A DNA stretch of 64,000 bases from Spirochaetia bacterium (GCA_963677925.2 CAXXYH010000004.1:1088001-1152000), one strand, 5' to 3'. Counted from the stretch's first letter, positions 48,277 to 64,000 are shown. Numbers and translations: made by a program. Notes: generated by a model not told the origin, from the sequence alone.

Positions 48277-49065
48277 GTGAAAAATGTAAAAGAGTTTCTT
48301 TCAGACTGCCCTCAAAAGATAAAGTATGTACTTACCGATATCGATGATACCCTGACAGAGGAAGGAAAACTTGGCGCAGATGCATATTCAGCCCTGTGGA
48401 GGCTGCATGATGCGGGCTTTACAGTGATCCCTGTAACCGGACGTCCGGCAGGCTGGTGCGATATGATAATCCGCCAGTGGCCTGTTGATGCAGTAATAGG
48501 TGAGAACGGCGCCTTTGTCTACTATTTTGAAGACCATCAGCTTAAGACCTACACACACCCCTCAGTTGCTGATACCGATGTGAGAAAGAAGCTTGATGAT
48601 GTATACGATGCAGTAAAGACTGAAATTCCCCTGGTCCGGAAGGCAAAAGATCAGTTTGCAAGAATCTATGATCTTGCAATTGATTTCAACGAGGATCCTC
48701 CGCGGCTCGGCTATGAAGCGGCCGGACGGATTAAGGATATATGTGAGGCCCAGGGCGCGATAGCCAAGGTCAGCTCGATTCATGTAAACACCTGGTTCGG
48801 TGATTATTCAAAGATAGGAATGGCAGAGCTCTTTATGAAATACCGCTACGGCCTTGATTCTGATGCTTTTAAACAATCCTCCGTCTTCTGCGGTGACTCT
48901 CCCAACGATGAGCCTATGTTCAACTTCCTGCCTTACTCCTTCGCCGTAGCCAATATCCGCGACTTTGATGATATGCTCGTCCACCGTCCTGCCTACATCG
49001 CAGACTCAAGAGGAGGAAGCGGCTTTGTAGAAATTTCTGATGTGCTTATAAACAGCATCAGCTGA
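48277..49065 (+). CDS. HAD-IIB family hydrolase
   Basis: DIDDT, TGRP, GDSPND. Confidence 0.9.
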   Translation: MKNVKEFLSDCPQKIKYVLTDIDDTLTEEGKLGADAYSALWRLHDAGFTVIPVTGRPAGWCDMIIRQWPVDAVIGENGAFVYYFEDHQLKTYTHPSVADTDVRKKLDDVYDAVKTEIPLVRKAKDQFARIYDLAIDFNEDPPRLGYEAAGRIKDICEAQGAIAKVSSIHVNTWFGDYSKIGMAELFMKYRYGLDSDAFKQSSVFCGDSPNDEPMFNFLPYSFAVANIRDFDDMLVHRPAYIADSRGGSGFVEISDVLINSIS

Positions 49066-49067
49066 CT

Positions 49068-50000
49068 GTGACGGGAGGATATGAAGTGGATGAGATAATC
49101 AGATGGCTTCTTGAAGGCGATGCCTCGATCGCGTATCAGACCTGCCGTGACCTTCTTGATACAGACAGACCTGAACTTCAGATAAAAGCCGCTGGCGAGG
49201 GGTGGGGTAAAATTCTTCTTGATGCACAGCGTCCCGACGGTCACTGGGGCCTGAAGTTCTATCAGCCCAAATGGACATCTACCCACTATACGCTGCTGGA
49301 TTTACGCAACCTGTGCATTCCTGCTGAAACTCCAGCAGTGCAGGAAACTGTTGAAATGCTTCTGGAGCAGGAGAAGGGTGTGGATGGAGGAATAAATCCG
49401 CCCGGATCTGTAAAACAGAGTGACGTCTGTTTAAACGGAATGTTTCTGAATTATGCCTGCTATTTTAATGCTGATCCTGAAAAGCTTGTATCAGTAATTG
49501 ATTATATGCTTGATCAGAGACTTCCAGACGGCGGATATAACTGTCAGTTTAACCGCAAAGGTGCTGTTCACAGCTCACTGCATTCCAGTCTTTCCGTAGC
49601 CGAAGGCTTCACCGAATACCTGAAAAACGGCTACTCCTACCGAGCCGATGAAATCAAAAGCTCTCTCGGCGGGATTCGTGATTTTATCTTTCGGCACAGA
49701 CTGTTCCGTTCAGATCGAACCGGTGAAATAATTAAGAAAGATTTCCTCCGTTTTCCGTATCCGCCGAGATGGCGTTATGACATTCTGCGGGCAATGGATT
49801 ATTTCAGGTATTCGGAAACGCTTTACGCCCCGGCTATGGATGAAGCAATAGCTATAATCAAAAGCAAGCAAAAACCTCCCGGTCACTGGAACGCCCAGGC
49901 CTCCCTGCCGGGGCAGGTTCACATTCATTTTGAACAGGCTGGCACCCCCGGCAGGTGGAATACGCTGCGGGCTCTTCGTCTACTTAAATTTTATTGCTGA
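49068..50000 (+). CDS. prenyltransferase/squalene-cyclase-fold hypothetical protein
   Basis: QRPDGHW and QRLPDGGYNC repeats; WRYDILRA; RWNTLRAL. Confidence 0.7.
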   Translation: MTGGYEVDEIIRWLLEGDASIAYQTCRDLLDTDRPELQIKAAGEGWGKILLDAQRPDGHWGLKFYQPKWTSTHYTLLDLRNLCIPAETPAVQETVEMLLEQEKGVDGGINPPGSVKQSDVCLNGMFLNYACYFNADPEKLVSVIDYMLDQRLPDGGYNCQFNRKGAVHSSLHSSLSVAEGFTEYLKNGYSYRADEIKSSLGGIRDFIFRHRLFRSDRTGEIIKKDFLRFPYPPRWRYDILRAMDYFRYSETLYAPAMDEAIAIIKSKQKPPGHWNAQASLPGQVHIHFEQAGTPGRWNTLRALRLLKFYC

Positions 50001-50042
50001 TTCGTCACAGGTCTGCTAATATAAAATAAAACGGATAAAGTA

Positions 50043-51116
50043 TTGGCAGTTGAAATCGTTTATGAAGAAAATAATAAAATTGGTATAATTTTCCCTTTTG
50101 ATGCCCAGATTCTGGATATTGTACGCACAATACCCGGAAGACAATGGCAGCCCGCAAATAAAAAATGGACATTTCCGGATACTGATGCAAATATGCAGCA
50201 TTTTCTCTTATCATTATATAAAACCGGCAGGTTTAATGTGGATGAGAAGGCTCTCGAAAATCAGGAACCGTCTCATAGCCGCTATTTGGAAAAAATGCTT
50301 CAGTATCTAAAGCTTAGAGACTATAGTCCTCATACTATTGAAACGTATAAGATGCAGCTCAAGTGGTTCTTTGATAGAACAGAACTTTCTCCTTCAGAAG
50401 TCACGACCGAGGATATCAAATTATATCTGGAGAAAATGCGGACACTGGCGGGGTGTTCAAGAACATACTTTGTACAATGTGTGAGCGCCCTGAAAAGCTT
50501 CTATAAGTATGGTTATCCCGGCGGTCTGTTTAATCCTGCAGCATCGATTCCCATGCCGAAAAAAGAAAAGAAGTATCCGGATATTCTATCCAGGGAAGAA
50601 GTGAAGAAGATAATAACATCTCCGTCGAATATTAAGCACCGATTGCTATTATCATTAATATACTCTGCAGGTCTCCGAGTAAGCGAAGCCGTTATAATAC
50701 AGTTGCAGGATATTGATACCGATAGGAAAGTAATTCATATCAGGCAGGCAAAAGGACGAAAAGATAGATATGTAATGCTTTCAACTGAGATTATTAATAT
50801 GATTAATCAATACAGATCCAAAGTGATGGTGCATACATGGCTTTTTCCTGGCAGTGCAGGTGCGGATACCCATCTTGCTACAAGATCTGCACAGAATGCC
50901 TTTTATAAAGCTATAGAAGCAACAGGTATCGAAAAAAATGTAAGTATACATTCTTTAAGACATGCCTTTGCCACTCATCTGTTGGAAAACGGTACAGACC
51001 TGAGATATATTCAGGAGCTCTTAGGTCACCGTGATCCAAAAACAACACAGATTTATACACATGTAAGTACTAAAGACCTAAAAAATATAAATAGTCCACT
51101 GGACGGGTTATTATGA
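50043..51116 (+). CDS. tyrosine recombinase associated with the cassette array (HARP-like + SAM-like + catalytic domains)
   Basis: GLRVSE, AKGRKDR, HSLRH, LGH, IYTH catalytic residues intact; LRDYSPHTIETY SAM-like domain; directly upstream of the first cassette. Confidence 0.93.
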   Translation: MAVEIVYEENNKIGIIFPFDAQILDIVRTIPGRQWQPANKKWTFPDTDANMQHFLLSLYKTGRFNVDEKALENQEPSHSRYLEKMLQYLKLRDYSPHTIETYKMQLKWFFDRTELSPSEVTTEDIKLYLEKMRTLAGCSRTYFVQCVSALKSFYKYGYPGGLFNPAASIPMPKKEKKYPDILSREEVKKIITSPSNIKHRLLLSLIYSAGLRVSEAVIIQLQDIDTDRKVIHIRQAKGRKDRYVMLSTEIINMINQYRSKVMVHTWLFPGSAGADTHLATRSAQNAFYKAIEATGIEKNVSIHSLRHAFATHLLENGTDLRYIQELLGHRDPKTTQIYTHVSTKDLKNINSPLDGLL

Positions 51117-51190
51117 ATAACAGGTTTATAAGGATTTAAGCTGGAGGGTTATATGAATGATATACCAGTTTATAATTCTGAGTTTATATG
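51117..51190 (+). other. candidate primary integration (attI-equivalent) site
   Basis: between the recombinase stop and the cassette 1 start (TTATATGC at 51184); TATAA-TTCTGAGT-TTATA core and a GGGTTATATGA box complementary to TCATATAACCC of the long attC-like sites. Confidence 0.45.
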
Positions 51191-51265
51191 CAATGGACCC
51201 GACAAGAGGAAGACGCCCGGACCTCCGGCCGACGGGCGAAGAGACATAAAGGTGGGGGATTTTTT

Positions 51266-52735
51266 ATGCAAGATTTATATATAAAATATAATAAGAAAGA
51301 TAATAAAATTGATTTTGGGCAAACAAAAGGCTCAATAATCGAGATTACTATAAAGCCACCTTCAATCGTTAAAGAAACAAAAGAAACAGGCATAACGAGA
51401 ATATCTGCTATTCAAGAAGATTTTGATAATCTAATTTCGGGAAAGAAGATGATTGACGTTAATAAAACGACTCTCGAACATTGTTATATCTTGGATAAAA
51501 AGGATCCTTACCGATTAGCGGCGACAAATTTTATTTTAAAAAATGAAAAGGATATTGAAGAATATAGTGAAATTCCAAAAGAAAATGATGCTGGTATATA
51601 TAAAAACTATGTAAAAGCATTTTTAGAAGAATTTACAAGATGTACGAAACACATTCCGTTTGCTGAAAAAATTAAAGTCTATCCTTTACCATTGTTGACT
51701 CCATGTAATGTGGAAGTATTAGTAGGTAAAGATGGTGTGTGCTTTATTTTCTCATCAGAAAGTAGACCTGAAAAAGTAAGTGTTTCCTTAGATATAAATA
51801 AAATAATAGAGGAACTTCTTCTGCCTCATCCTACTAATAGAAGATATTCATCATATGGACCTAATACTATTTTTAATTTTATCTGCTCAGATGAGAATTT
51901 TATACATGTGGTAGGGGATGGGAATGCGTTTTTAGATTCTATGCTAGGGAATCCAGTATTTTTGATTTTTGAAAAATCGTTTCATGGTTATTATTCCAAT
52001 ATGAATTTTATAAGAAATTATCCTGATACGGGACTTCAAGTTAAAAAGAAAGTTGAATATTGTGAAATATTTGGTAATAACCATATCTCTAACTTTTCAC
52101 TTGAAAACGCAAGGAGTAGAGCTAGGATAGTTGCGTATAAATCAATTTTGAGTAGTGTTACAGGAAATGTTAATAAAGTAGAAGAACTTAAAAATGTCTT
52201 GATAGAATTGAAAAACAAAATAAACAATGATGTCGGTGAAATAGAAATTGAGAAATTTATTGATTCAAATAAATGGATTTTAGAGAAAGGGATAGGGTGT
52301 CAAAAATATTTTTCACAAATTTCGATACCGAAAGATTTATTATATGATGCTGATGGTGGAATTAAACCTGATAAATATATGATGAATAATGACGGATATT
52401 GTGATATTTTAGATTTAAAAAAACCATCAGCCAAACTAATTGTAATAAAGAATAACCGCAGTCATCAATCTAGTTCTTTAACCGAAGCGGAGGCACAAAT
52501 TGATAAATATATTGATTTCTCTCGTGAACCAAAGGTTAGAGATTATTTATTAACGCTTAATATAAAAATTACGAAACCTGATGGAATTGTATTGATTGGG
52601 AGAACCCCGAAGGAATATTTAAAAGAATGGATTGATATAAAAAAGAGATTACAAATAAAAGTATATACTTATGATGATTTAGTTAATAATTTGGATAATT
52701 TAATTGATTGGATAGATAAGATTCTTACAATTTGA
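51266..52735 (+). CDS. cassette 1: Shedu-like (DUF4263) anti-phage nuclease with long N-terminal region
   Basis: C-terminal E.EIEKFI..N.WIL, KPD, ILDLKKP, LTEAEAQIDKY, P.GIVLIGR, VYTYDDL; start moved to 51266. Confidence 0.75.
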   Translation: MQDLYIKYNKKDNKIDFGQTKGSIIEITIKPPSIVKETKETGITRISAIQEDFDNLISGKKMIDVNKTTLEHCYILDKKDPYRLAATNFILKNEKDIEEYSEIPKENDAGIYKNYVKAFLEEFTRCTKHIPFAEKIKVYPLPLLTPCNVEVLVGKDGVCFIFSSESRPEKVSVSLDINKIIEELLLPHPTNRRYSSYGPNTIFNFICSDENFIHVVGDGNAFLDSMLGNPVFLIFEKSFHGYYSNMNFIRNYPDTGLQVKKKVEYCEIFGNNHISNFSLENARSRARIVAYKSILSSVTGNVNKVEELKNVLIELKNKINNDVGEIEIEKFIDSNKWILEKGIGCQKYFSQISIPKDLLYDADGGIKPDKYMMNNDGYCDILDLKKPSAKLIVIKNNRSHQSSSLTEAEAQIDKYIDFSREPKVRDYLLTLNIKITKPDGIVLIGRTPKEYLKEWIDIKKRLQIKVYTYDDLVNNLDNLIDWIDKILTI

Positions 52736-52788
52736 ATTAAGAATCCAGACCTAACTCCGTTGAACGGTCTGGATGTCGGGTCCAAAGC

Positions 52789-52882
52789 ATAAAACAGGGG
52801 CTATGTGTATCGTCGCTATGCGCTCCTCGGGCTGCGCCACATACGGCTACGCCGTACGTCACATAACACCGGGACGTTATGA
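52789..52882 (+). repeat. attC-like site 1 (short, 94 bp)
   Basis: ATAAAAC-AGGGGCTATGTG...CACATAAC-ACCGGGAC-GTTATGA. Confidence 0.85.
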
Positions 52883-52993
52883 GCAATAAGCCCGACAAGT
52901 AAAAGACGCCCGGACCTCCGGCCGACGGGCAAAGAGAGACAGTGTGATAAAATATTATACTAAAAAAGTAAATATAGAATTAAGGGTTTTCAT

Positions 52994-53587
52994 ATGAAAA
53001 AAATAATATGTGTTCTAATCCTTTACATATTATCTATTTTTAGTTGTGTTACAACAGAAACTGTAAATATCAAGAAAGATAGTATGGAAAAGAGTGATTC
53101 TGTCTCTAAAGAAGAATTCAAAATTAGCATAAAAGAATTTGATGATATTTCAAAATATAAAAAGCTTATAAATTTATATGCATTTAAATATAGTGATGAG
53201 AGCAATACAGAATTTCGAGTTTTTACAGGTAGATGTTCAGCTTTTGTCAGGGACAATGGATATTCATCAATATTGCTGAACAATTCTGATGAGAGAGAAA
53301 TAATAAATAGTTATGAAGGTGATTATGAAAAAATTGCTATTATAAATGTCCATACAGTTGATTTAGATAAAGAAAATGGGAAAATTATAATAATCATGTT
53401 TGGAATAAATGATGATGATAAAGAAAAAATATTGTATGTACCTTTTTGGATTGCTACAGCAGAAGGTAAAAGTGTTGAGATTTTGAAATTAAAAAGTAGA
53501 GAAGAAGTTGGAAAATACATGATAGATTGTTTTTTTAATAATATGGAAATTTCTAATGAGTTGATTTATACATTAAGTGGAAATTAG
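52994..53587 (+). CDS. cassette 2: hypothetical lipoprotein
   Basis: MKK...IFSC lipobox; AT-rich. Confidence 0.75.
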   Translation: MKKIICVLILYILSIFSCVTTETVNIKKDSMEKSDSVSKEEFKISIKEFDDISKYKKLINLYAFKYSDESNTEFRVFTGRCSAFVRDNGYSSILLNNSDEREIINSYEGDYEKIAIINVHTVDLDKENGKIIIIMFGINDDDKEKILYVPFWIATAEGKSVEILKLKSREEVGKYMIDCFFNNMEISNELIYTLSGN

Positions 53588-53660
53588 ATTATTCATAACA
53601 ATGAAGGATAAAGAATCCAGCCCTAACTCCGTTGGACGGTCTGGATGTCGGGCTTAAAGC

Positions 53661-53755
53661 TCATAACAGGGGCTATGTGCTTCGTCGCTATACGCTCCTC
53701 GGGCTGCGCCACATACGGCATTCGCCGTACGTCACATAACCCCGGGACGTTATAG
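53661..53755 (+). repeat. attC-like site 2 (short, 95 bp)
   Basis: TCATAAC-AGGGGCTATGTG...CACATAAC-CCCGGGAC-GTTATAG. Confidence 0.9.
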
Positions 53756-53848
53756 CGCAATGAGCCTGACAAGATGAAAATCGCCCGGACCTCCGGCCGA
53801 CGGGCGAAGATATATATATGCTAAGTATCCAAAAAAGGTGATATGTAA

Positions 53849-54385
53849 ATGAATTATCAAACAGTCTATGATATTTCTAAATCTTCTTATAATTGGGTAT
53901 TCCCCTTTTTAGGAATACTTATAACCATTTTATTAATAATTTTTACTAAAGTGGTAAGAAGAAACTTGAAAGTTTTAAATAGGATAGAGGCAGAAAAAGA
54001 AAAAAAGGAAATTTTCTATAATTTTAATAATCCATATGTGAGTAATATGTTGAGACGATTACCCATGGTTTTCACGATATTGGCTTCTATAGCGACCGTT
54101 TTTATAACTTATGGATCTATAAATTATTATGTGAAATTAAATGAAGTGATTCAAAATCAAGAGTATTCAGTTGTTGAAGATAAAATAAAAATTATTAATA
54201 AGTTTGAAACAAATAGAATTCAAAATTTCAAAGTTGGAAAATTTATTTTTAATGTTGCGGATATAAACTCCATCAGAATCTCATTTTGGAAATCTGGAAC
54301 ATATGAAGATTTTTTAGTTGAAGGTCAAGATGTTAAAGTTTATTTTTATGGAAAGTATATTTTGCGTGTTGATTTAATGAAATGA
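53849..54385 (+). CDS. cassette 3: two-TM hypothetical protein
   Basis: AGGTG RBS; two hydrophobic helices plus a soluble C-terminal domain. Confidence 0.75.
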   Translation: MNYQTVYDISKSSYNWVFPFLGILITILLIIFTKVVRRNLKVLNRIEAEKEKKEIFYNFNNPYVSNMLRRLPMVFTILASIATVFITYGSINYYVKLNEVIQNQEYSVVEDKIKIINKFETNRIQNFKVGKFIFNVADINSIRISFWKSGTYEDFLVEGQDVKVYFYGKYILRVDLMK

Positions 54386-54520
54386 ATATGCATGCAAAAT
54401 TTCTATTCATATAGTTACTATTAAAGAGTAATTACTAAGAAATTTGAGTATTATTTTAGCATATAAGAGTGGGAATCCAGACCTAACTCCGTTGAACGGT
54501 CTGGATGTCAGGCTCAAAGC

Positions 54521-54843
54521 GCATAACAGGGGCTATATGCTCGTCGCTAAACGCTCCTTGGGCTTCGCCACATTTTTATTTTCTGAATTGGGTAATTGGG
54601 TACAGCATTTAACAAGAGATTTGGAGTAGTCAAAACCTTTGTCACAGTTCTGGCTAAAGACACTCCGCGCTGATCGCGCTACGTTCCAGAACTGCGCCAA
54701 GCCTCGGAGACTCGGCCGGTTTCGCTACTCAAATCGTCGTTAAATGCACAGAAATGTGCCAATAGTTTATGATTGAGAAATACGGGTAAGTGGTGGTAAA
54801 ATTAAGAAAAATAAAAACGTCATATAACCCCGGGGCGTTATGA
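54521..54843 (+). repeat. attC-like site 3 (long, 323 bp)
   Basis: same ends as the short sites, with an approximately 240-bp structured arm replacing the ACGGC..GCCGT hairpin. Confidence 0.85.
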
Positions 54844-54960
54844 GCAATGAGCCCAACAAGAGGAAGACGCCCGGACCTCCGGCCGACGGGCGAAGAATCG
54901 ATTGGTTTGATTTTTATAACTGATAAGTGATGTCAAAAGTAATATAAAGAATAGGTTGGT

Positions 54961-55680
54961 ATGGATATACAAGAGGATAAAGTAAATAATAATTTGATTG
55001 CGCAAGATTTAGAATTAGGAGTAATAACTATGGGGGCAGCAACGATTGATCAAAGACATAATTTTGCATACCAACATATGCACTCAGCTATTGAATTTAG
55101 GAATCAAACTTATAAAATTGAAGAAGATAATAAAAACGAAAAATTTGGATATTTTTTTGAGTTGATTAGAACATATGTAAGTGGTTGTATATTCTTTTCA
55201 GTGGCTTCAGTAGAGGCAAATATAAATGAAATTATATGTGATATTATTGAAAATAAAATAAAATTAGGTGAGTTTGAAAAAAAGAAAATTATTGAAATAA
55301 ATGATAGAGAGTCTACTCTTAAAAAATACGAAATCATATTAAACGAGGTAATGAAGTTTGAATTATCAAAAGATAAAGAAATTTATCAAAATATGAAAAT
55401 TTTAATAGATGTAAGAAATGCTTTTACTCATTTCAAACCAGAATGGGAATCAAATCAGAAATGGCATGATAAAATTGGAAGAAAATTATCTGGGAAAATC
55501 AAGATGACTCCATACATAGAAGATAGCAGTCCGATTTTTCCGATGCGTTGCATGACTTATGATTTTTGTTGTTGGTCCACAATATCAAGTTATAATTTTA
55601 TGAAAGAAATTTTTAGTTTACTATCAATAAGAAATAAATTTGAGAAATTTGAAGAAACAATTTATAAGGGTAGTAATTAA
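54961..55680 (+). CDS. cassette 4: HEPN-like protein
   Basis: ASVEANINE helix and RNAFTH (R-X4-H) motif. Confidence 0.6.
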   Translation: MDIQEDKVNNNLIAQDLELGVITMGAATIDQRHNFAYQHMHSAIEFRNQTYKIEEDNKNEKFGYFFELIRTYVSGCIFFSVASVEANINEIICDIIENKIKLGEFEKKKIIEINDRESTLKKYEIILNEVMKFELSKDKEIYQNMKILIDVRNAFTHFKPEWESNQKWHDKIGRKLSGKIKMTPYIEDSSPIFPMRCMTYDFCCWSTISSYNFMKEIFSLLSIRNKFEKFEETIYKGSN

Positions 55681-55761
55681 TATAATTATATAGCTTATTT
55701 TTATAGTGTAAGGGAATCCAGACCTATCTCCGTCGAACGGTCTGGATGTTGGGCTCAAAGC

Positions 55762-56085
55762 GCATAACAGGGGCTATATGCATCGTCGCTAAATGCTCCT
55801 CGGGCTGCGCCACATTTTTATTTTGTAATTGGGTTAATAGGGTATAGCATTTAACAAAAGATTTGGAGTAGTCACAACCTTTGTCACAGTTCTGGCTAAA
55901 GACACTCCGCGCTGATCGCGCTGCGTTCCAGAACTGCGCCAAGCCTCGGTGACTCGGCCGGTTTCGCTACTCAAATCGTCGTTAAATGCACAGACATGTG
56001 CCAATAGTTTATGATTGTGAAATACGGGTAAGTGGTGGTAAAATTAAGAAAAATAAAAACGTCATATAACCCCGGGACGTTAGCT
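55762..56085 (+). repeat. attC-like site 4 (long, 324 bp)
   Basis: near-identical to site 3. Confidence 0.85.
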
Positions 56086-56213
56086 GCAATTTCGGTCATG
56101 GTAATTATCTAATTAGTAGGAGCCCGCCTTCCATGGCGGTCAGGATAGAAGAAGTAAATATCTACATTTTGATACATTTTTTAAATAAACAATCTAAATA
56201 ATAAGGAATTTTA

Positions 56214-56933
56214 ATGAAAAAAAAGAGAATTATATCAATACTTCTATGTCTTTTTTCAACATCGGTCTATGCAGAAACAAATGATGTTCCAAATGGAATG
56301 ATCATAGAATCATCTTCTAATAATGGACAATCAATTCTTGTAAGAAAACATGACCAAGTTTTGACGATTGATTACTCTGCGCACGATTTTCAAATGGTTA
56401 TTTATGATTCTCCAATAAATAAAGAAAAAATTGGGGAATTGAAAAAGAAGGATGTAATACGAATAAAAGAAATACATATTATTGATGATAACGAAATGTG
56501 GTTTAAAATTTCTGCTTCTGAGAAAAATGGTTATATCTTATTTAAAATTGGTGAAAATATTTATGATTTCTACGCTGATAATTTATGGCAACCAGTAGAA
56601 ACTATTCAGAGTGGGGAGCAAACTTGGCATACATTAAAATGTAATCAGAGTTTTATTGTTTATACTAATTTGTTTATTCGTGATAAACCTGGATTTGGTG
56701 GGGAAAAAATAGGAATGATAACTGCAAATAATAGCAATTCCGAAATAGTAAGCACTTCAGAAGTTACTGTTGAAAAAGAGAAGATTGATGGAAAAACTGA
56801 ACGCTGGGCTAAAATTGAATATTAAGGACTAATTGGTTGGGTATTTGCAGGTTATTTGAGTTATGAAAGAGGTGGGCCTAGGTTTAATACTCCCGAATCA
56901 ATGATAGCAATGAGTCTTGGCGCAGGTATTTAA
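56214..56933 (+). pseudogene. cassette 5: secreted SH3-domain protein with an in-frame stop at 56823-56825
   Basis: signal peptide; NLFIRDKPG...WAKIEY*GLIGWVFAGYL is an SH3b-like motif split by TAA; the frame continues to 56933. Confidence 0.7.
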
Positions 56934-57040
56934 ATTTTTAGATATTATTATAATTCGTGGAAATTTAAATTGTTTTACAGAGTCAAATACATCCTTGTAT
57001 TTGACAGAATTAATCACTTGACAACCATGACGGAAACAGC

Positions 57041-57367
57041 AGCTAACAGGGGTTATTTGCTTCGTCGCTATGTGCTCCTCGGGCTTCGCAACATTTTTAT
57101 TTTTGTAAATGGACGATATGACAAAAGGCATTTAACAATGATTTGCAGCAGTCCTGGCTATTTTCACGGTTTTAGCTAAAGACGTTCCGCGCTGATCGCG
57201 CTGCACTCTAAAACCGAGCCAATGCCGTAGGAGACTACGGCCGCCAGGCAGCTGAAATCGGCGTTAAATGCACAGACATGTGCCAATAGTTTATGATTGA
57301 GAAATACGGGTAAGTGGTGGTAAAATTAAGAAAAATAAAAACGTCATATAACCCCGGGACGTTATAC
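57041..57367 (+). repeat. attC-like site 5 (long, 327 bp, divergent arm)
   Basis: AGCTAAC-AGGGGTTAT...CATATAAC-CCCGGGAC-GTTATAC. Confidence 0.85.
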
Positions 57368-57399
57368 GACATATCACATATCTAAAATGGAGTAAAAAA

Positions 57400-57807
57400 G
57401 TGAGTGAAAGACCGTTTAAAGAAAAATCGAATGAACCTACAAACGAAAAAATAAATGAAGCACTCGGTGCTGTTTCCGAATATTATCATGATTTAAATAA
57501 ATTGACAAAAGATTTTCAACACACCTGGAATCATTCAAAATCCAGTGGCTGGATGGAAAAAGTAGAAGATAATAAAAAAGCTCTTTACTATTTTATTCCG
57601 TTGAATGATTCCTTTATTCTGAGTATGGCTATTAGAGAAAATGAAAAAGAATATTTTGAGTCTAAAGAGGGTATGGTAAAATATAAAGATATAGTATCAA
57701 CCGCCAGAAAATATTCGGAAGGATATAATATAAAATTTGAGGTAGAAAACTCTGAGCAATACGATTTTTCAAAAGAGTTTGTAAAAGAAATAATTGCTCA
57801 AAGGTAG
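57400..57807 (+). CDS. cassette 6: DUF3788-like hypothetical protein
   Basis: P..E.I.EALG...W...K.SGW..K....KK.L.Y..P....F, ARKYSEG pattern; GGAG RBS with GTG start. Confidence 0.6.
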   Translation: MSERPFKEKSNEPTNEKINEALGAVSEYYHDLNKLTKDFQHTWNHSKSSGWMEKVEDNKKALYYFIPLNDSFILSMAIRENEKEYFESKEGMVKYKDIVSTARKYSEGYNIKFEVENSEQYDFSKEFVKEIIAQR

Positions 57808-57821
57808 ATATGTGAAACGTC

Positions 57822-57915
57822 GTATAACAGGGGCTATGTGCTTCGTCGCTATACGCTCCTCGGGCTGCGCCACATACGGCTTCGCCGTACGTCACATAAC
57901 CCCGGAACGTTATCT
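57822..57915 (+). repeat. attC-like site 6 (short, 94 bp)
   Basis: GTATAAC...GTTATCT; body nearly identical to site 2. Confidence 0.9.
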
Positions 57916-57977
57916 GACATACCCAGAAAAGTTCCGACCCTCACCATCCGTGGTTCGGGTTTTAAGAAGAAGAGAAA

Positions 57978-58724
57978 ATGAATATTGAATGTATTATTAA
58001 AGAAGCTGGAAGAAAGTTAAAGAACGAATATTTGGAAACGCCTCTTGTCTCAGTTAAAGAAAGATATGATTTAGTAAGTCAAAGTGATAAGAGGATTGAA
58101 GAGGAATTAATAAAAGAGATTATAAAGTTGTTTCCAAATGATGATATTTATTCAGAAGAAATTGGAGAAATTAAGAATGAAGGAAGATCAAGATGGATTA
58201 TAGATCCAATTGATGGAACCGCTGATTTTATTTTTGGAGTCCCGTACTTTGCAATATCAATCGCAAAAGAAGTAGATGGGATAATTGAAGAAGGTTATGT
58301 ATATAATCCAATATCGGAAGAGTTTTATAAATCAATTAAAAATGAAAGAAAATCCTACCTCAATGATGTAGAAATAAAAGTTTCAGAAAAAAATGTAATT
58401 GAAGAATCTTTAATTGCTTTCGGATTTAGTGCCAATGAAGAGAATATGAATTTATATCTTTCTGAATGGTCTAATCTCATGAATGATTGTAGAAAGGCAA
58501 TGCCATTAATCACTCCTGCATTAACAATTTGTAATGTCGCAAGAGGAAGGATCGACGCTTACATAGATTTTGGTTCAAGTATGGAAGGAAAAGCTGCTGC
58601 CAGTATGATATTGCTGAATGCAGGAGGAAGTATTCGGAATTATTATAGAGAGGGTTTTGATCATAGAGAAAAAGGACATATATGTAGCAATGGAAGATTG
58701 GATCTTGAAGAAGGAAGAGGTTAG
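57978..58724 (+). CDS. cassette 7: inositol monophosphatase family protein
   Basis: DLVSQSD, SEE, WIIDPIDGT, VARGRIDAY. Confidence 0.88.
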   Translation: MNIECIIKEAGRKLKNEYLETPLVSVKERYDLVSQSDKRIEEELIKEIIKLFPNDDIYSEEIGEIKNEGRSRWIIDPIDGTADFIFGVPYFAISIAKEVDGIIEEGYVYNPISEEFYKSIKNERKSYLNDVEIKVSEKNVIEESLIAFGFSANEENMNLYLSEWSNLMNDCRKAMPLITPALTICNVARGRIDAYIDFGSSMEGKAAASMILLNAGGSIRNYYREGFDHREKGHICSNGRLDLEEGRG

Positions 58725-58783
58725 GAAGAAAAATAAGTACATCCCTGTACTTATTTTAGAGGTATAATAAAAATGGGTACGTC

Positions 58784-58875
58784 AGATAACAAGGGTTACA
58801 CGCTCCGGCCATACGGCCTGCGGGCTGAGCCACATTCGGCTACACCGAACGTCGTGTAACCCTGGAACGTTATCT
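58784..58875 (+). repeat. attC-like site 7 (short, 92 bp, divergent)
   Basis: AGATAAC-AAGGGTTACACG...CGTGTAAC-CCTGGAAC-GTTATCT; compensatory stem changes relative to the other sites. Confidence 0.85.
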
Positions 58876-58990
58876 GCAATGTTTCCGCCAAGAGGAAGAT
58901 GCCCGGACCTCCGGCCGACGGGCGAAGAAGAATGAGGTTTGAATATACTAATTAGTGAGATAAGATAAAATAAAAAAATGAGGTAGCATT

Positions 58991-59560
58991 ATGAAAGTGT
59001 TTATTTTAACTGTTTTAGGAGTAGTCTCAACAAGAATTTTGGATTTATTCACTACATATAAAATTACTCCGGATTTAGAGAAAGAAAGTAATTTATTTGT
59101 AAAGTTGCTTGGGGAAACTGGAGGTTGGGCAGCGATTTGGATATTTCAAGCAATTGTAGTAATTTTACTTCTCTATTTAGAATATTTAAGAATAAAAAGT
59201 CCAACCGTCGAATATGTAGAAGATGAGGGTTTGAAATTTAAAGAATATTTTTCATTAAATTATTCGAGTAAGAAAGATGATTTAATAAAATCAGTAATGA
59301 ATTTACCATTAAAGAAGAGGTTGATGATCGATCTATTAGGATATATTGGTACAAGAACTTTACTATTTGGAACAATTCCTGTCTGTTTATCAAGTCTGTT
59401 TGCGATTTTAAACTCTTCTTATCGAAGTTTCTATGTAGATAATAGTTTATGGAGAATACTGTATTTAATAATGGCAGTAGTATTAGTGAGTTTTTATATA
59501 AGATTTTTTTGGATAAGATTTAAGGATTATGAGAAGAAAGATATTTTAAAGAAAATGTAA
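58991..59560 (+). CDS. cassette 8: hypothetical membrane protein
   Basis: four TM segments; DLFTT....PDL.KESN motif. Confidence 0.75.
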   Translation: MKVFILTVLGVVSTRILDLFTTYKITPDLEKESNLFVKLLGETGGWAAIWIFQAIVVILLLYLEYLRIKSPTVEYVEDEGLKFKEYFSLNYSSKKDDLIKSVMNLPLKKRLMIDLLGYIGTRTLLFGTIPVCLSSLFAILNSSYRSFYVDNSLWRILYLIMAVVLVSFYIRFFWIRFKDYEKKDILKKM

Positions 59561-59637
59561 GAAAGAGAGAAAGAGAGAAAGAGAGAAACCAGCCCTGGCT
59601 CCGCCGTACGGTCTGGCTGAAGAGGCGGAAACACAGC

Positions 59638-59816
59638 AGATAACAGCGGCTATGTGCGGCGTCGCTAAACGCTCCTTGGCCTACGGCATATTTTGTTTTG
59701 GCATCGCTTTTGCGAAGAGGTAGAAAAATATAGGGTAAAGGCGTCGAATGCAAAAGTGCTGCCAATCGGCCTGTAGGGCCGACCACAAAACATCACATAA
59801 CCGCGGGACGTTATAG
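59638..59816 (+). repeat. attC-like site 8 (intermediate, 179 bp)
   Basis: AGATAAC-AGCGGCTATGTG...CACATAAC-CGCGGGAC-GTTATAG with a different inserted arm. Confidence 0.85.
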
Positions 59817-59930
59817 GAAATATTTTGGCTAAGAGAAAGACGCCCGGACCTCCGGCCGACGGGCAATAAGGAAAAAAAGAATAAATTTTAAAATTGATAT
59901 ATTATGTCAATATATAAGAAATGAAACGTA

Positions 59931-61057
59931 TTGAAAAGGATTCTATTATTTTTATTATTATTAGGAATAACCTCATGTAAAAACTTTTTTCCATATTATC
60001 AAAATGGATACCATTTCAATCAAATATTTTCTAAAGATACAAAACTTATTTTAGATGAAAAAGCAGATTCATTCTCTGCGTTTATATCTGAGACTTCTAA
60101 AGTTTTAGTATATTATAGTACTGATGGGATGGTGCACTTGATAGATTTGGAAGGATTGATTGAAGTTTCCACCATCCCTTGGGTTGATAATTCAAATTAT
60201 TATAATGATATTGTTCCTGATTTTAAACAATTGTATATTTATGAAAATTATTTGTATCTTCTAGGGTCAACAGATTGTCTGGTATATTTGATTGAGGATA
60301 TATCAAATCCATCTTTTAAATATTCTATTAGTGAAAATAATACCTATAATTTAAACACTACCTATTATTTAAGTTTAAGATGTATGGATAATAAAATATA
60401 TATTTTAGATTCTAATTCATTTTCATACTATAAACTATTATTAATTTTGGATGCAGATAATATGCTAGAAATTGAAAGACATTATTTAGATTCTTTTGAA
60501 GGAGTAATTGATAAAGAAATTTACTTAAATTCAAATTATTTATACACTTTTTCAAGTGAGCTTAAAATTGATAAAGATGGTAATCCTTTTACAATAACAA
60601 ATCAAATGATTGTTTATGATATTACTGATATTTCTAATAATTATGAATTGGTCGATATAAATTCTATCAGTTTAGAGGACAATGGATTTAATATATATAA
60701 TGATATTATAGTAAGTGATGGAGCAATAGGTTTAAATTCAGAAGAGTATTTTTGGAGCATAATAAAATTAGATAGTGAAAAAAATATGAATTTCTACAAA
60801 AATGTAATTCAACAGATGAAATAAACTTGTTTAGTTATTTTGATTTAGATTTTGATTTTAATAATATTTTAATCGGGAATTATTTTGTTTATGATATAAG
60901 AGAGTTAAATAGTCCAAGATGGATTGGGACTATTGATGAGGATTTGAAAGACATCGAAGTTGTAAGAAAACTTCAAACTGGAGATAACTTATTTTTATTT
61001 GAAAAAGGTAGTGATAGTGAGAATGAAATAGCTTTAGTGAAGTATGCTTTTAATTGA
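59931..61057 (+). pseudogene. cassette 9: LVIVD-like beta-propeller lipoprotein, frameshifted near 60800
   Basis: lipobox ITSC; IEDISNP, VYDITDISN, VYDIRELNSP repeats; the two ORFs join if one A is added to the A5 run at 60798-60802. Confidence 0.65.
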
Positions 61058-61156
61058 TAAAGTTTGTTTTGGGATACTGTTAAAGTTGAAAGTTGTATGT
61101 TTAAGAGTCCAGCCCTATCTCCGATGTACGGTCTGGCTCAAGAGCCAAAATACTTC

Positions 61157-61479
61157 CTATAACAGGGGCTATATGCTCAGCCCATTCGGGCTTCGGGCTG
61201 CGCCACATTTTTATTTTATGGATTGGGCTATTTGGGTATAGCATTTAACAAAAGTTTTGGAGCAGTCCTGGCTATTGTCATGATTCTGGCAGAGACGTTC
61301 CGCGCTGATCGCGCTGCACTCCAGAATCACGCCAATGCGCGCGAAGACACGCGCCGCCATGCAGCTCAAAACGTCGTTAAATGCACAGACATGCGCCAAT
61401 AGTTTGTGATTGGTAAATACGGGTAAGTGGTGGTAAAATTAAAAAAATAAAAACGTCATATAACCCCGGGACGTTATGC
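61157..61479 (+). repeat. attC-like site 9 (long, 323 bp)
   Basis: CTATAAC-AGGGGCTATATG...CATATAAC-CCCGGGAC-GTTATGC. Confidence 0.85.
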
Positions 61480-61950
61480 GGACATCGCCGGAGCATGGTT
61501 ATGGGGTGGAGAAAGTTCCGAACAAGAAGTGATTACCAAATAGTTTGCAATATTCAATTCGCCCTAGATTGAGGAAGATTTTTGATTTTGATTTGGATGT
61601 TGTTGGAAGAAGGTCGTTAAAATTGACGAAGCTTGTTCTGGCGTGAAAGAAAAAGTATTGTCTTAAAATTATCAAAATCTTTTTTGAAGATGGAGCAGGT
61701 TTTACCATTTTGCAAGTCTGATTCACTCGCATAGCTCGTTGACTTGCGACTTAATAAAAATGATTGTTTTACTTGCAAAGGGCGAATAGAATATTGAGAA
61801 GAAATAGAAAGAGAAGATTGTATAGATTATTTGATTGATCGGAATCTTTCTCTAATAAAGGCGACGTCGCATAACAGGGCACATGCGGCTACGGGGTCAA
61901 GCCCCTTCGCCCAAATTGGCCTGCGGCCAACTTCGCATATGCCCGGGACG
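61474..61950 (+). other. cassette 10: ORF-less structured cassette (includes attC-like site 10, 61869-61956)
   Basis: no credible ORF; nested long-range complementary segments; paralog of cassette 11. Confidence 0.75.
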
Positions 61951-62426
61951 TTATGCGGACATCGCCGTAGCATGATCTTGGGGTGGAGAAAGTTCCGAAC
62001 CAGAAGTGATTACCAAATAGTTTGCAATATTCAATTCGCCCTGGATTGAGGGAGATTTTGGATTTTGATTTTGTGGTTGTCAGAAGAAAGCCGTTGCATC
62101 TGACGAAGTTTATTCTGACGTGGAAAAAAGTATTGTTTTATAATTATCAAAATCTGCTTCGTGGACTTGGCAGGGTTTTCCGTTTGGCAAGTCTGCCTCA
62201 CTCGCTTTGCTCGTTGACTTGCAGGTGAAATAAAAATGATTGTGAAAGTCGCAAAGGGCGAATAGAATATTGGGTAGAAATGGTAAGAGGAGATTTGTTA
62301 GGTCATTTGATTGATCGGAATCTTTCTCTAATAAAGGCGACGTCGCATAACAGGGCACATGCGGCTACGGGGGCAAGCCCCTTCGCCCAAATTGGCCTGC
62401 GGCCAACTTCGCATATGCCCGGGACG
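61951..62426 (+). other. cassette 11: ORF-less structured cassette (includes attC-like site 11, 62345-62432)
   Basis: diverged tandem copy of cassette 10 that keeps the paired segments. Confidence 0.75.
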
Positions 62427-62535
62427 TTATAGGAAATGCCCATCAAAATCTTTGAAAGATCCTCGCCATCCATGGCTCGGTTTAGAAGAATAGAAAGAAG
62501 TTGACAATCCACTACAATGTAATTACAGTATAAAT

Positions 62536-62820
62536 ATGGAACATATCCAGTTTGAATGGGATAATAAGAAAGATGAGCTAAATCAGAAGAAGCATAAGAT
62601 AGGTTTTGACGAGGCAAAAACTGTATTTTATGATCCATCTGCATTGTTGATTCATGATCCAGATCATTCTGAAGATGAAGAAAGATTCATAATTATGGGG
62701 ATGAGTCAAAGCTTGAAGATCTTAGTTGTTTGTCATTGTTATAGATCTAATGATGAAGTTATACGAATAATATCTGCTAGAAAAGCAGAGAAAGAAGAGA
62801 TTAGGCAATATGGAGGATGA
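62536..62820 (+). CDS. brnT: cassette 12: BrnT-family toxin
   Basis: FEWDNKK...N..KH.I.F..A..VF.D...EERF...G...IRIISARKA; candidate own promoter TTGACA at 62501. Confidence 0.9.
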   Translation: MEHIQFEWDNKKDELNQKKHKIGFDEAKTVFYDPSALLIHDPDHSEDEERFIIMGMSQSLKILVVCHCYRSNDEVIRIISARKAEKEEIRQYGG

Positions 62821-63040
62821 AGATATGAGAGATTCATATGATTTTTCGAATGCAAGAAAGAATCCTTACATTACAAAATTAAAGAAGCAAATCACAATCA
62901 GATTGGATGAAGAAACCATAGATTATTTTAAAGAGATGTCAGAAGAATCAGGGATAAAATATCAGCAATTAATAAATCTTTATCTGGCTGATTGTGCAAA
63001 GAAAAATCTAAAATTAAATATAAATTGGAAAGCCTCTTAA
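62810..63040 (+). CDS. brnA: cassette 12: BrnA-like (RHH) antitoxin
   Basis: YDFSNARKNPY...KKQITIRLD...IDYFK...GIKYQQLIN. Confidence 0.85.
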   Translation: MEDEDMRDSYDFSNARKNPYITKLKKQITIRLDEETIDYFKEMSEESGIKYQQLINLYLADCAKKNLKLNINWKAS

Positions 63041-63093
63041 AGCCCAAAGTACGTCCTGTACTTTGGGTAAATAATAAAAGTGATGGGCACTTC

Positions 63094-63188
63094 CTATAAC
63101 AGGGGCTATGTGCTTCGTCGCTATGCGCTCCTCGGGCTGCGCCACATACGGCTTACGCCGTACGTCACATAACCCCTGGACGTTAGCT
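63094..63188 (+). repeat. attC-like site 12 (short, 95 bp)
   Basis: CTATAAC...CACATAAC-CCCTGGAC-GTTAGCT. Confidence 0.9.
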
Positions 63189-63313
63189 GAAATGCCCCCG
63201 CGAAGAGAAAGACGCCCGGACCTCCGGCCGGCGGGCGATAAGGAAATTATAATATGCATAATTGATTTACAAGTCTAAATATAGTACTATATAAGCACTA
63301 ATAGGAGTTTATT

Positions 63314-63598
63314 ATGAATTTAAGAGAAGATATTAAGCCGATTTCATATATTAAAACAAACGCAGCAGACATGTTAAAACGTGTTAATGATACTCACAAC
63401 CCGATTGTAATAACCCAGAATGGTGAAGCAAAAGCAGTTTTGATGGATACTGAATCATATCAAGAAATGAGGAATAGTCTTGGAATTTTAAAATTGCTTG
63501 CAGAAGGTGAACGTGATATCGAAAAGGGAGATATCTATACACAAGATGAAGTTTTTGAAGAAATTGAAGCAAAACTGTTAAATATGAAGAAGAAATAA
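63314..63598 (+). CDS. cassette 13: Phd/YefM-family antitoxin
   Basis: IKPISYIK...PIVITQNGEAKAVLMD. Confidence 0.9.
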   Translation: MNLREDIKPISYIKTNAADMLKRVNDTHNPIVITQNGEAKAVLMDTESYQEMRNSLGILKLLAEGERDIEKGDIYTQDEVFEEIEAKLLNMKKK

Positions 63599-63602
63599 TG
63601 AT

Positions 63603-63917
63603 ATGGAAGTTATTTGGACTAAAACAGCAAAAAATGATTTAAATGAGATAGTTGAATATATAGCAAATGACTCTGTAGAAATAGCATTAAATAAATTTTA
63701 TGAAATTAGAGAAAGTACTAAACCCTTAGAGAAATTTCCTGAACAAGGAAGACTGATTCCAGAATTAAGAAATGAAAACATCTTGCGATATAGGGAAATT
63801 ATAATAAACCCATGGCGGATAATGTATAAAATAGAAGATAAGAAAGTTTATATTATAGCAGTCATAGATGGAAGAAGAAATGTTGAAGATGTTTTAATGA
63901 AAAGGCAACTTCGTTAA
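63603..63917 (+). CDS. cassette 13: RelE/ParE-family toxin
   Basis: WTKTAKNDL.EI.EYIA...FPEQGR..PEL...YRE....WRIMY...IAVIDGRR. Confidence 0.9.
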   Translation: MEVIWTKTAKNDLNEIVEYIANDSVEIALNKFYEIRESTKPLEKFPEQGRLIPELRNENILRYREIIINPWRIMYKIEDKKVYIIAVIDGRRNVEDVLMKRQLR

Positions 63918-63982
63918 AGAAACATTAAAAGAATCCAGACCTAACTCCGTCGAACGGTCTGGATGAAGAGCGGGGGCACTAC

Positions 63983-64000
63983 AGCTAACAGGGGCTATGT
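63983..64000 (+). repeat. attC-like site 13 (5' part, cut by the window end)
   Basis: AGCTAAC-AGGGGCTATGT. Confidence 0.8.

Follow-up and report, generated by a model that had tools for sequence, protein, structure and literature searches.

Which enzyme moves gene cassettes in an integron-type array that is headed by a tyrosine recombinase without the I2 insertion, the feature by which integron integrases are defined and detected by software? This question is raised by a locus on contig C4 of the 5.04-Mb genome of a Spirochaetia bacterium (G000), of which a stretch of 64,000 nt (the window) was analysed. At position 50000 the GC content drops from 0.48 to 0.24-0.43, and an open reading frame (ORF) for the recombinase, here called X (50043-51116, + strand), is followed by same-strand ORFs that are set apart by related repeats. 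An earlier note, made from the sequence of the window alone, had suggested that X serves an integron-like cassette array and that the two form a distinct, possibly convergent gene-capture platform. We report here that the array is a genuine integron cassette array, that X is not an IntI on any of the three features tested (score, I2 and tree placement), and that X may have a catalytic role at the insertion site, attI. The features at the head of the array are the following:

50043..51116, + strand: tyrosine recombinase X, 357 amino acids, TTG start; HARP-like N-domain, SAM_4-type core-binding domain and catalytic domain
50043..50222, + strand: HARP-like N-domain, residues 1-60, beta-beta-alpha-beta-beta-alpha (Pfam, AlphaFold2 and Foldseek)
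51117..51184, + strand: attI-like site with four GTTTATA/GGTTATA boxes; predicted crossover G↓TT at 51182↓51183

The array and its attC sites

The attC sites were scored with a covariance model built in this analysis (R1); a home-made generic attC finder (TAAC...GTTA plus minimum free energy) recovered 6 of the 12 sites along with 22 false matches in a 50-kb control, and was dropped. The 13 site-like repeats that had been noticed earlier turn out to be 12 complete attC sites, starting at 52787, 53659, 54519, 55760, 57039, 57820, 58782, 59636, 61155, ~61866, ~62342 and 63092, and a thirteenth (63981-) that is cut by the window end, all of them on the + strand. Site length is ~90-100 nt in eight of the 13, 178 nt in one and ~322-326 nt in four. 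Each site has the form xxxxTAAC followed by a box such as AGGGGCTATGTG, with the complementary box, 5 nt (GGGAC or GGAAC) and GTTA on the 3' side; TAAC and GTTA are invariant across the sites, and the G↓TT crossover signature is present in every cassette.

In 10 of the 12 cassettes that have both their start and their attC within the window, the 4-5 nt of R'' that precede TAAC are reverse-complementary to the bases with which the same cassette opens after G↓TT, a pairing that was judged by eye, allowing at most one difference, at the outermost base. For example, R'' of cassette 2, GCTCATAAC, is reverse-complementary to GTTATGAGC at the start of that cassette, and the start of cassette 5 at 56083, GTTAGCTGC, pairs with R'' GCAGCTAAC; the remaining two cassettes show one internal mismatch or one extra base in this pairing. 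An alignment of 26 sites from six genomes revealed compensatory changes in 8 of the 11 predicted L-box pairs. The single site that was folded, attC6, is more stable as a bottom strand (-19.9 kcal/mol, z -3.0) than as a top strand (-13.6 kcal/mol, z -0.3), and a 4-nt bulge is confined to its bottom strand. The attC sites of this array behave like canonical folded bottom-strand sites, and the array is a genuine integron cassette array.

No R1 match was found in positions 1-50000 of the window. A whole-genome scan of G000, in which 150 of 628 first-look candidates were scored, gave 17 matches, of which 16 lie at C4:1140788-1160258 (+) and one in a second array on contig C3 (-). Because the R1 matches reach C4:1160258, the array continues for ~8 kb beyond the window end, to about window coordinate 72260. 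The window holds the head of a sedentary chromosomal integron-type array with at least 22 attC sites over ~21 kb.

One side observation concerns cassette 2, in which the 22 nt ending in R'' are complementary to the first 22 nt of the cassette at 91%; the R-box stem is therefore longer than the usual 7 bp.

The insertion site

The first cassette begins 66 nt after the X stop codon at 51116, close to the ~70 bp given in the earlier note, and the cassettes are AT-rich as described there (GC 0.24-0.43). R'' of cassette 1 (GCATAAAAC) pairs with the bases just past the crossover. Single strands of the attI-like site do not fold (-2.6 and -4.5 kcal/mol, z -0.3 and -1.1).

A comparison of cassette order between strains had been suggested, and it proved informative. 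The G000 locus and that of its congener G001 are 94% identical over 49998-51184 and unrelated beyond the predicted crossover (...TTCTGAG↓TT). Already the first cassette is a different one in each, and from the crossover onward the two arrays have almost no cassettes in common. Since the homology ends at 51184 and the arrays hold almost no shared cassettes, attI is active, and array and attI together are a real, recently active integron platform. Logan contigs from three sequencing runs of one study break at the repeats, their joints are short-sided at repeated elements, and they were uninformative on excision.

The recombinase lacks I2 and carries a HARP-like domain

X was judged against IntI by the TIGR02249 integrase_gron model and by pairwise alignments. 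It scores 194.2 bits on TIGR02249, in two stretches (97.5 and 98.9 bits) that flank the missing segment, against a cut-off of 265. Exactly 23 residues separate the KGRKDR patch from the WLFP patch (KGRKDR-YVMLSTEIINMINQYRSKVMVHT-WLFPG), in agreement with the earlier count of about 23. The alignment to the Vibrio cholerae integrase VchIntIA (2a3v) is split, with residues 79-252 and 277-354 of X corresponding to 3-175 and 241-318 of the chain and residues 176-240 skipped, and that to the canonical IntI encoded on contig C3 of the same genome has a 31-residue gap at MPQALSSKYTNASKSWIWFWVFPS. Because both alignments gap at this place, the I2 insertion is truly absent from X, as had been proposed. 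The catalytic residues R212, K237, H303, R306, H329 and Y338 are invariant in an alignment of 33 sequences, so that the description of X as a catalytically intact recombinase, co-oriented with what is a true attC array, holds.

Among NCBIfam models, the best for X is NF040815 recomb_XerA_Arch, on which it scores 232.5 bits (cut-off 220) over residues 84-348, with the N-terminal 83 residues outside the model, and matches PF00589 and PF13495 in Pfam. The AlphaFold2 model of X (predicted local distance difference test, pLDDT, 88) has 2a3v (E 4.5e-15) and XerA as its best Protein Data Bank (PDB) folds, and the best PDB match by sequence is the archaeal Xer 4a8e (2e-40).

The first 60 residues of X make up a separate, HARP-like domain. 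The Pfam HARP family (PF07443) matches X with E 9.3e-5 and 22.3 bits, under its cut-off of 25, and is matched at E<=0.01 in 17 of 33 relatives of X (best 4.1e-8). When the N-domain was modelled in isolation (pLDDT 88), the top Foldseek hit in the PDB was 4o66, the HARP substrate-recognition domain of SMARCAL1 (E 0.05, probability 0.99, template modelling score 0.57-0.60). HARP domains bind DNA with branches or forks. They are described as conferring annealing-helicase activity on other SNF2 proteins to which they are fused (PMC4035279). The HARP-like domain of X is a plausible means of reading DNA structure, as far as the models indicate.

Phylogeny and selection

Phylogenetic trees were computed with FastTree (107 rows) and IQ-TREE in quick mode (77 rows), rooted on XerC/D, with Shimodaira-Hasegawa-like support and no bootstrap. 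IntI proteins form a monophyletic clade with support 100 (20 and 16 rows in the two trees), and X groups apart from them, with support 98, in a clade made up of 45 I2-less proteins of several phyla; the two clades are sister groups in both trees. The expectation that X would be placed outside IntI was thereby confirmed, while the word "convergent" in the earlier note was too strong, as X belongs to the sister group of IntI and not to a distant recombinase lineage. Within the group of X, clade 1 (support 100) comprises the proteins of G000, G001, G004, G006, G007, G010, G020, G225 and G234, and clade 2 those of G237, G261 and G177.

Between G000 and G001, X is 96% identical, with a synonymous divergence (dS) of 0.22 and a ratio of nonsynonymous to synonymous divergence (dN/dS) of 0.07. 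A neighbouring core gene, also 96% identical, has a dS of 0.13, close to that of X. These values indicate that X is functional, under purifying selection and vertically inherited. The canonical IntI proteins of the two genomes (C3, L001 in G000; C6, L056 in G001) share 79% identity, with dS 1.39 and dN/dS 0.095. By this measure X is the stably inherited gene and the IntI locus the more changeable one, with what seems to be a history separate from that of the chromosome backbone.

X heads arrays in other genomes

The class was sampled with 401 Spirochaetia genomes, in which X-like proteins were called at E<=1e-60 and IntI at the TIGR02249 cut-off of 265 bits; 32 genomes have an X-like protein and 127 have an IntI. 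At all nine clade-1 and clade-2 loci with at least 3 kb of sequence downstream (G000, G001, G004, G006, G007, G234, G237, G261 and G177; 39-96% identity, four taxonomic families), R1 matches follow X, all on the strand of the gene, which bears out the suggestion that homologs in other genomes would sit next to similar arrays. The remaining clade-1 contigs stop within ~1 kb of the X gene. One R1 match was found in G012.

The most extreme case is G261, a single contig with 98% completeness, in which 156 R1 matches, all on the + strand, span 332 kb (C1:1848868-2180714; loci L158 and L198-L213) behind an intact X. This array makes up ~8% of the genome and exceeds the Vibrio cholerae superintegron in size. 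Its GC content is 0.29-0.35 as compared to 0.40 in the flanks, and no R1 match occurs in the 20 kb on either side of it. The only intI match in G261 is split and has 3 stops. The array of G261 also contains 26 pairs of near-identical duplicates with a length of 500 nt or more and an identity of at least 99%. These were considered as evidence and set aside, being mostly a 1.28-kb element, probably an insertion sequence; the rest could arise without an integrase.

In two further genomes the large array starts at X and lies apart from the canonical intI: in G007 no R1 match was found within 20 kb upstream of intI, and in G237 the closest reported R1 match is ~290 kb from it. For three further arrays, no gene of the Xer/IntI type was found within ~6 kb of the head, at 3.9 Mb in G007, 0.6 Mb in G054 and 3.12 Mb in G237. 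Five complete genomes with IntI only gave 0, 0, 0, 1 and 2 R1 matches. That the R1 type of attC might be confined to genomes with X was ruled out by R1 matches in X-less genomes of a 151-genome sample.

The X-like clades 3 and 4 are not clearly linked to arrays, with 0 R1 matches in 6.5 kb in G365, 0 in 3.3 kb in G039, and 5 on the opposite strand in G293. Another I2-less recombinase lies beside an R1 array, on the same strand, in G136. A third I2-less clade, of ~270 amino acids, is divergent from R1 arrays in G054, G018 and G102 (L219 2919-3749, L220 1363-2220 and L218 6099-6959, respectively); in these genomes the canonical intI lies elsewhere, and one in-frame TAG falls within the matches in G018 and G054. 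Of 21 loci with full-length relatives of X from outside the spirochaetes (L060-L097), 11 have a contig end at no more than 2 kb on the downstream side of the gene, as compared to 2 on the upstream side, an asymmetry that would fit unassembled repeats downstream.

A canonical IntI and a second array in the same genome

A true intI elsewhere in the genome, which might account for the array, had been named in the earlier note as a finding that would speak against the proposal. Such a gene does exist. The sole protein of G000 that passes TIGR02249 is encoded at C3:128199-129458 (+), has 419 amino acids and the I2 signature, and scores 382.9 bits. An array lies upstream of this intI on the opposite strand, in the classical divergent layout, with the same R'', L'/R' and hairpin motifs as the C4 array.

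The two arrays also have cassettes in common. Window coordinates 64049-64880 correspond to C3:126573-125742 at 99.76% identity, and as this match stops at the GTTA of the cassette's own attC, an exact cassette unit has been copied. The second common cassette, at window coordinates 59787-61386, corresponds to C3:120890-119291 at 98.4% over 1601 nt. With two cassettes common to both, the C3 and C4 arrays must be supplied from a single pool of cassettes. When the attI sites of C4 and C3 were aligned, no convincing homology emerged. That the C3 IntI accounts for the C4 array is an alternative weighed below.

The canonical intI of G004 (C45; L194 6568-7831) has a frameshift in an A-run within the I2-coding region, which could be a sequencing error. 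This gene also heads an array, as shown by hairpin elements upstream on the opposite strand.

The role of X and the alternatives

Cassettes enter at attI directly 3' of X, each ending in an attC. In the mechanism that we propose, X would be the platform's own recombinase, binding and cutting its cognate double-stranded attI and taking part in insertion between attI and attC. X might act alone, with the HARP-like structure-recognition domain substituting for I2; alternatively, it may act on the attI side as a partner of the canonical C3 IntI, which draws on the same cassette pool. The co-oriented layout would allow transcription of X to read into the first cassettes. On the basis of the conserved position of the gene, the selection acting on it and the G261 case, we give a catalytic role of X at attI, alone or together with the canonical IntI, a probability of roughly 0.5. 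A bolder version of this reading, offered tentatively and rather unlikely as a whole, is that X-type enzymes form a second class of integron integrases with no need for I2, either survivors from before I2 or a parallel solution, which would read folded attC sites through the HARP-like N-domain, and would alone build and maintain Spirochaetia arrays of up to 332 kb; all such platforms would be filed as integrase-less clusters by detectors that rely on the IntI signature.

Several observations weigh against a catalytic role of X. Deletion of I2 is stated to abolish all activity of IntI1 (PMC7790495, citing Messier and Roy 2001). G000 itself has a canonical IntI with I2 and an adjoining array of the same attC type, and the exact units common to both arrays mean that one enzyme, most simply IntI, could serve both. 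The G261 array could predate the decay of its intI. Three X-bearing genomes have fragments or a frameshifted copy of intI, in addition to 18 of the 32 with an IntI over the cut-off. The R1 type of attC occurs in 39 of the 151 sampled genomes, including X-less G054 (19), G102 (21), G136 (9) and G032 (8). Outside the class, relatives of X, which are 30-41% identical, are for the most part not followed by repeats: of 54 loci with 3 kb or more of downstream sequence, 5 had at least 5 repeat sites, and one of these five is a true IntI.

These points lead to the main competing explanation, according to which the canonical IntI on C3 services the C4 array wholly in trans and X is kept at the array head for another array-linked reason, such as a regulatory role, transcription into the first cassettes or a different double-stranded recombination, without recombining cassettes. 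The C3 IntI has the I2 insertion and evolves under purifying selection (dN/dS 0.095); the attC type and near-identical cassettes are common to both arrays; the attC hairpins resemble those that the IntIs studied recognise by means of I2; and IntI occurs in 18 of the 32 X-bearing genomes as compared to 109 of the 369 others. Cury et al. 2016 also list 50 non-IntI recombinases near attC sites, 29 of them with an IntI elsewhere in the genome, which were judged not to be IntI (PMC4889954). An IntI acting wholly in trans, however, gives no account of why a co-oriented I2-less recombinase is kept directly upstream of the insertion point in four families and at 39-96% identity. The largest arrays are headed by X, with intI far from them in G007 and G237, and the 332-kb array of G261 persists with a dead intI. 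In addition, attI sites are described as normally specific to their own integrase (PMC2095811), yet the C3 and C4 attI sites are not clearly alike. On this evidence we consider service wholly in trans less likely than a catalytic role of X, but a real possibility.

X could also be the integrase of a mobile genomic island that moves the whole array block rather than single cassettes. Its gene sits exactly at the border between core DNA of GC 0.48 and the AT-rich block, and the genes upstream of it are common only to G001, not to the loci of 10 other genomes tested. This explanation is nevertheless very improbable: a comparison of the left boundary with the distal array end gave no significant flanking direct repeats (the best being 13 nt, E 0.026; no tRNA target was sought), the dS of X is close to that of the neighbouring core gene, and turnover from the crossover on proceeds cassette by cassette, not by replacement of the whole block. 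Least probable of all is that X is a decayed, inert IntI that lost I2 by deletion. The parts beside the missing segment do match the IntI model, and the C-terminal ...SPLDGLL tail of X aligns to the end of IntI. X nonetheless belongs to the 98%-supported clade of 45 I2-less proteins, from which the IntI clade (support 100%) is separate. Unlike the C3 IntI, it has a HARP-like N-domain; its dN/dS is 0.07 and all of its catalytic residues are retained. The tree and the selection test already contradict decay.

Whichever of these roles X has, a sister lineage of IntI that naturally lacks I2 has been kept where cassettes enter the arrays of several families, and it offers an enzyme and sites with which to ask whether I2 is required and what the IntI ancestor did. 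A 2020 eLife article states that no direct proof ties I2 to single-strand recombination, as deletion of I2 simply kills IntI1 (PMC7790495). If X is active, the number of complete platforms would be underestimated in integron surveys, and the driver of very large arrays would have gone unrecognised. Should X be only a partner or a bystander, its conserved pairing with arrays would still need explaining and would point to a division of labour between one recombinase on the attI side and another on the attC side.

Relation to known systems

The closest known layout is that of the co-oriented ("inverted") integrons of Treponema denticola and T. succinifaciens, in which recombinase, attI and cassettes are described as having the same reading direction (PMC3607928, PMC4889954). 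These belong to the same bacterial class and likewise have a long AT-rich chromosomal array with toxin-antitoxin cassettes; their enzymes, however, are canonical IntIs, whereas X scores 194 bits and has no I2. The canonical IntIs of G043, G335 and similar genomes score 416-508 bits on TIGR02249, and R1 gave 0 matches among the 150 of ~300 candidates scored in G043 and G335.

Arrays called CALIN (clusters of attC sites lacking integron-integrases) are usually read as array fragments or as arrays with a decayed intI. By the IntegronFinder definition, the window array would be filed as a CALIN, with no protein bearing the IntI-specific region beside it (PMC4889954); it differs in that its insertion site is active and that a conserved recombinase heads it. 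As regards the complete integron of the same program, PF00589 and attI are both present here, and the IntI-specific segment is absent by alignment to 2a3v and the C3 IntI.

With IntI (TIGR02249, 2a3v) X has in common the tyrosine-recombinase fold, a SAM_4-type core-binding domain, the C-terminal tail and its sister position in the tree; it differs in lacking I2, in falling under the TIGR02249 cut-off and outside the IntI clade, and in its extra HARP-like N-domain. Like XerA, XerC and XerD, X passes NF040815 ("site-specific tyrosine recombinase/integron integrase") and has no I2, but it is set apart from them by the HARP-like N-domain and its conserved place at the heads of attC arrays. Two other genes of G000, at C4:2273281 and C4:2277991, are Xer-like, and in the trees they group with the XerC/D outgroup. 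In the literature we found no description of I2-less recombinases conserved at array heads; the 50 cases in the supplement of PMC4889954 may include relatives of X.

Cassettes and smaller elements of the array

The cassette contents, with a nuclease domain, toxin-antitoxin pairs and ORFs of no family, are typical of chromosomal integrons. The cassettes and attC sites in the window, all on the + strand, are as follows:

51183..52879, +: cassette 1; ORF 51188/51266-52735, Shedu SduA_C nuclease domain (Pfam 1.7e-12)
52787-52879, +: attC1; R1 match 52788-52883, 81.9 bits
52880..53752, +: cassette 2; ORF 52994-53587, no family
53659-53752, +: attC2; R1 match 53660-53756, 93.4 bits
53753..54840, +: cassette 3; ORF 53849-54385; long attC3 54519-54840
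54841..56082, +: cassette 4; ORF 54961-55680; long attC4 55760-56082, partial R1 match 55761-55840
56083..57364, +: cassette 5; ORF 56214-56825, weak SH3_3 (Pfam); long attC5 57039-57364
57365..57912, +: cassette 6; ORF 57400-57807, DUF3788; attC6 57820-57912, R1 95.9 bits
57913..58872, +: cassette 7; ORF 57978-58724, inositol monophosphatase family (Pfam 1.8e-39)
58782-58872, +: attC7; R1 90.5 bits
58873..59813, +: cassette 8; ORF 58991-59560; attC8 59636-59813 (178 nt), R1 match 59637-59817, 55.9 bits
59814..61476, +: cassette 9; ORFs 59931-60824 and 60827-61057; long attC9 61155-61476; copy in the C3 array
61477..62429, +: cassettes 10 and 11; tandem 477-nt ORF-poor pair; repeat families D10, D11 and D13
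~61866-61953 and ~62342-62429, +: attC10 and attC11; R1 matches 61868-61957 and 62344-62433
62430..63185, +: cassette 12; BrnT/BrnA toxin-antitoxin, 62536-62820 and 62810-63040 (Pfam 9.8e-28 and 2.4e-7)
63092-63185, +: attC12; R1 89.3 bits
63186..64000, +: cassette 13; Phd/ParE toxin-antitoxin, 63314-63598 and 63603-63917 (Pfam 2.1e-17 and 7e-17)
from 63981, +: attC13, cut by the window end; remainder at C4:1151982-1152076
51214..51238, +: 25-nt hairpin CGCCCG-GACCTCCGGCCGA-CGGGCG, repeat family D8
52907-52931, 53782-53806, 54868-54892, 58900-58924, 59841-59865 and 63213-63237, +: further copies of the hairpin

Relatives of the 477-nt ORF-poor cassette occur at no fewer than 7 places in the compared 20 kb of the G001 array. 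An Rfam scan of 49000-64000 at E<=1 gave 0 matches, and a consensus scan for a Pc promoter that might drive the cassettes found 15 promoter-like sites as compared to 14.0 expected from shuffles.

In most cassettes the 25-nt hairpin lies at the 5' end, ~30-40 nt past the crossover, with a purine-rich stretch after it. Six arrays contain 182 copies of it (154 of them in G261) with a near-invariant core, and the exact 15-mer of the hairpin is found in 22 of the 401 class genomes, most of which belong to families f1 and f17. The hairpin has no Rfam match; its loop contains ACCTCC, which resembles the 3' end of 16S ribosomal RNA. That the hairpin might be an arm site read by the HARP domain was considered and set aside as speculation only: it is also present in the IntI-headed arrays of G000 (C3) and G004 (C45), and its exact 15-mer is missing from X-bearing G234, G020, G056 and G225.

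The four long attC sites (54519-54840, 55760-56082, 57039-57364 and 61155-61476) carry a conserved insert of ~230 nt in the central loop, which holds a 139-140-nt hairpin of its own with TAAC...GTTA ends. Short conserved minus-strand ORFs (MAQFWN...) overlap this insert, which may be chance. Upstream of R'' in seven cassettes lies a further stem-loop, ATCCAGACC...GGTCTGGAT (repeat family D7; 52726-52780 and six other copies).

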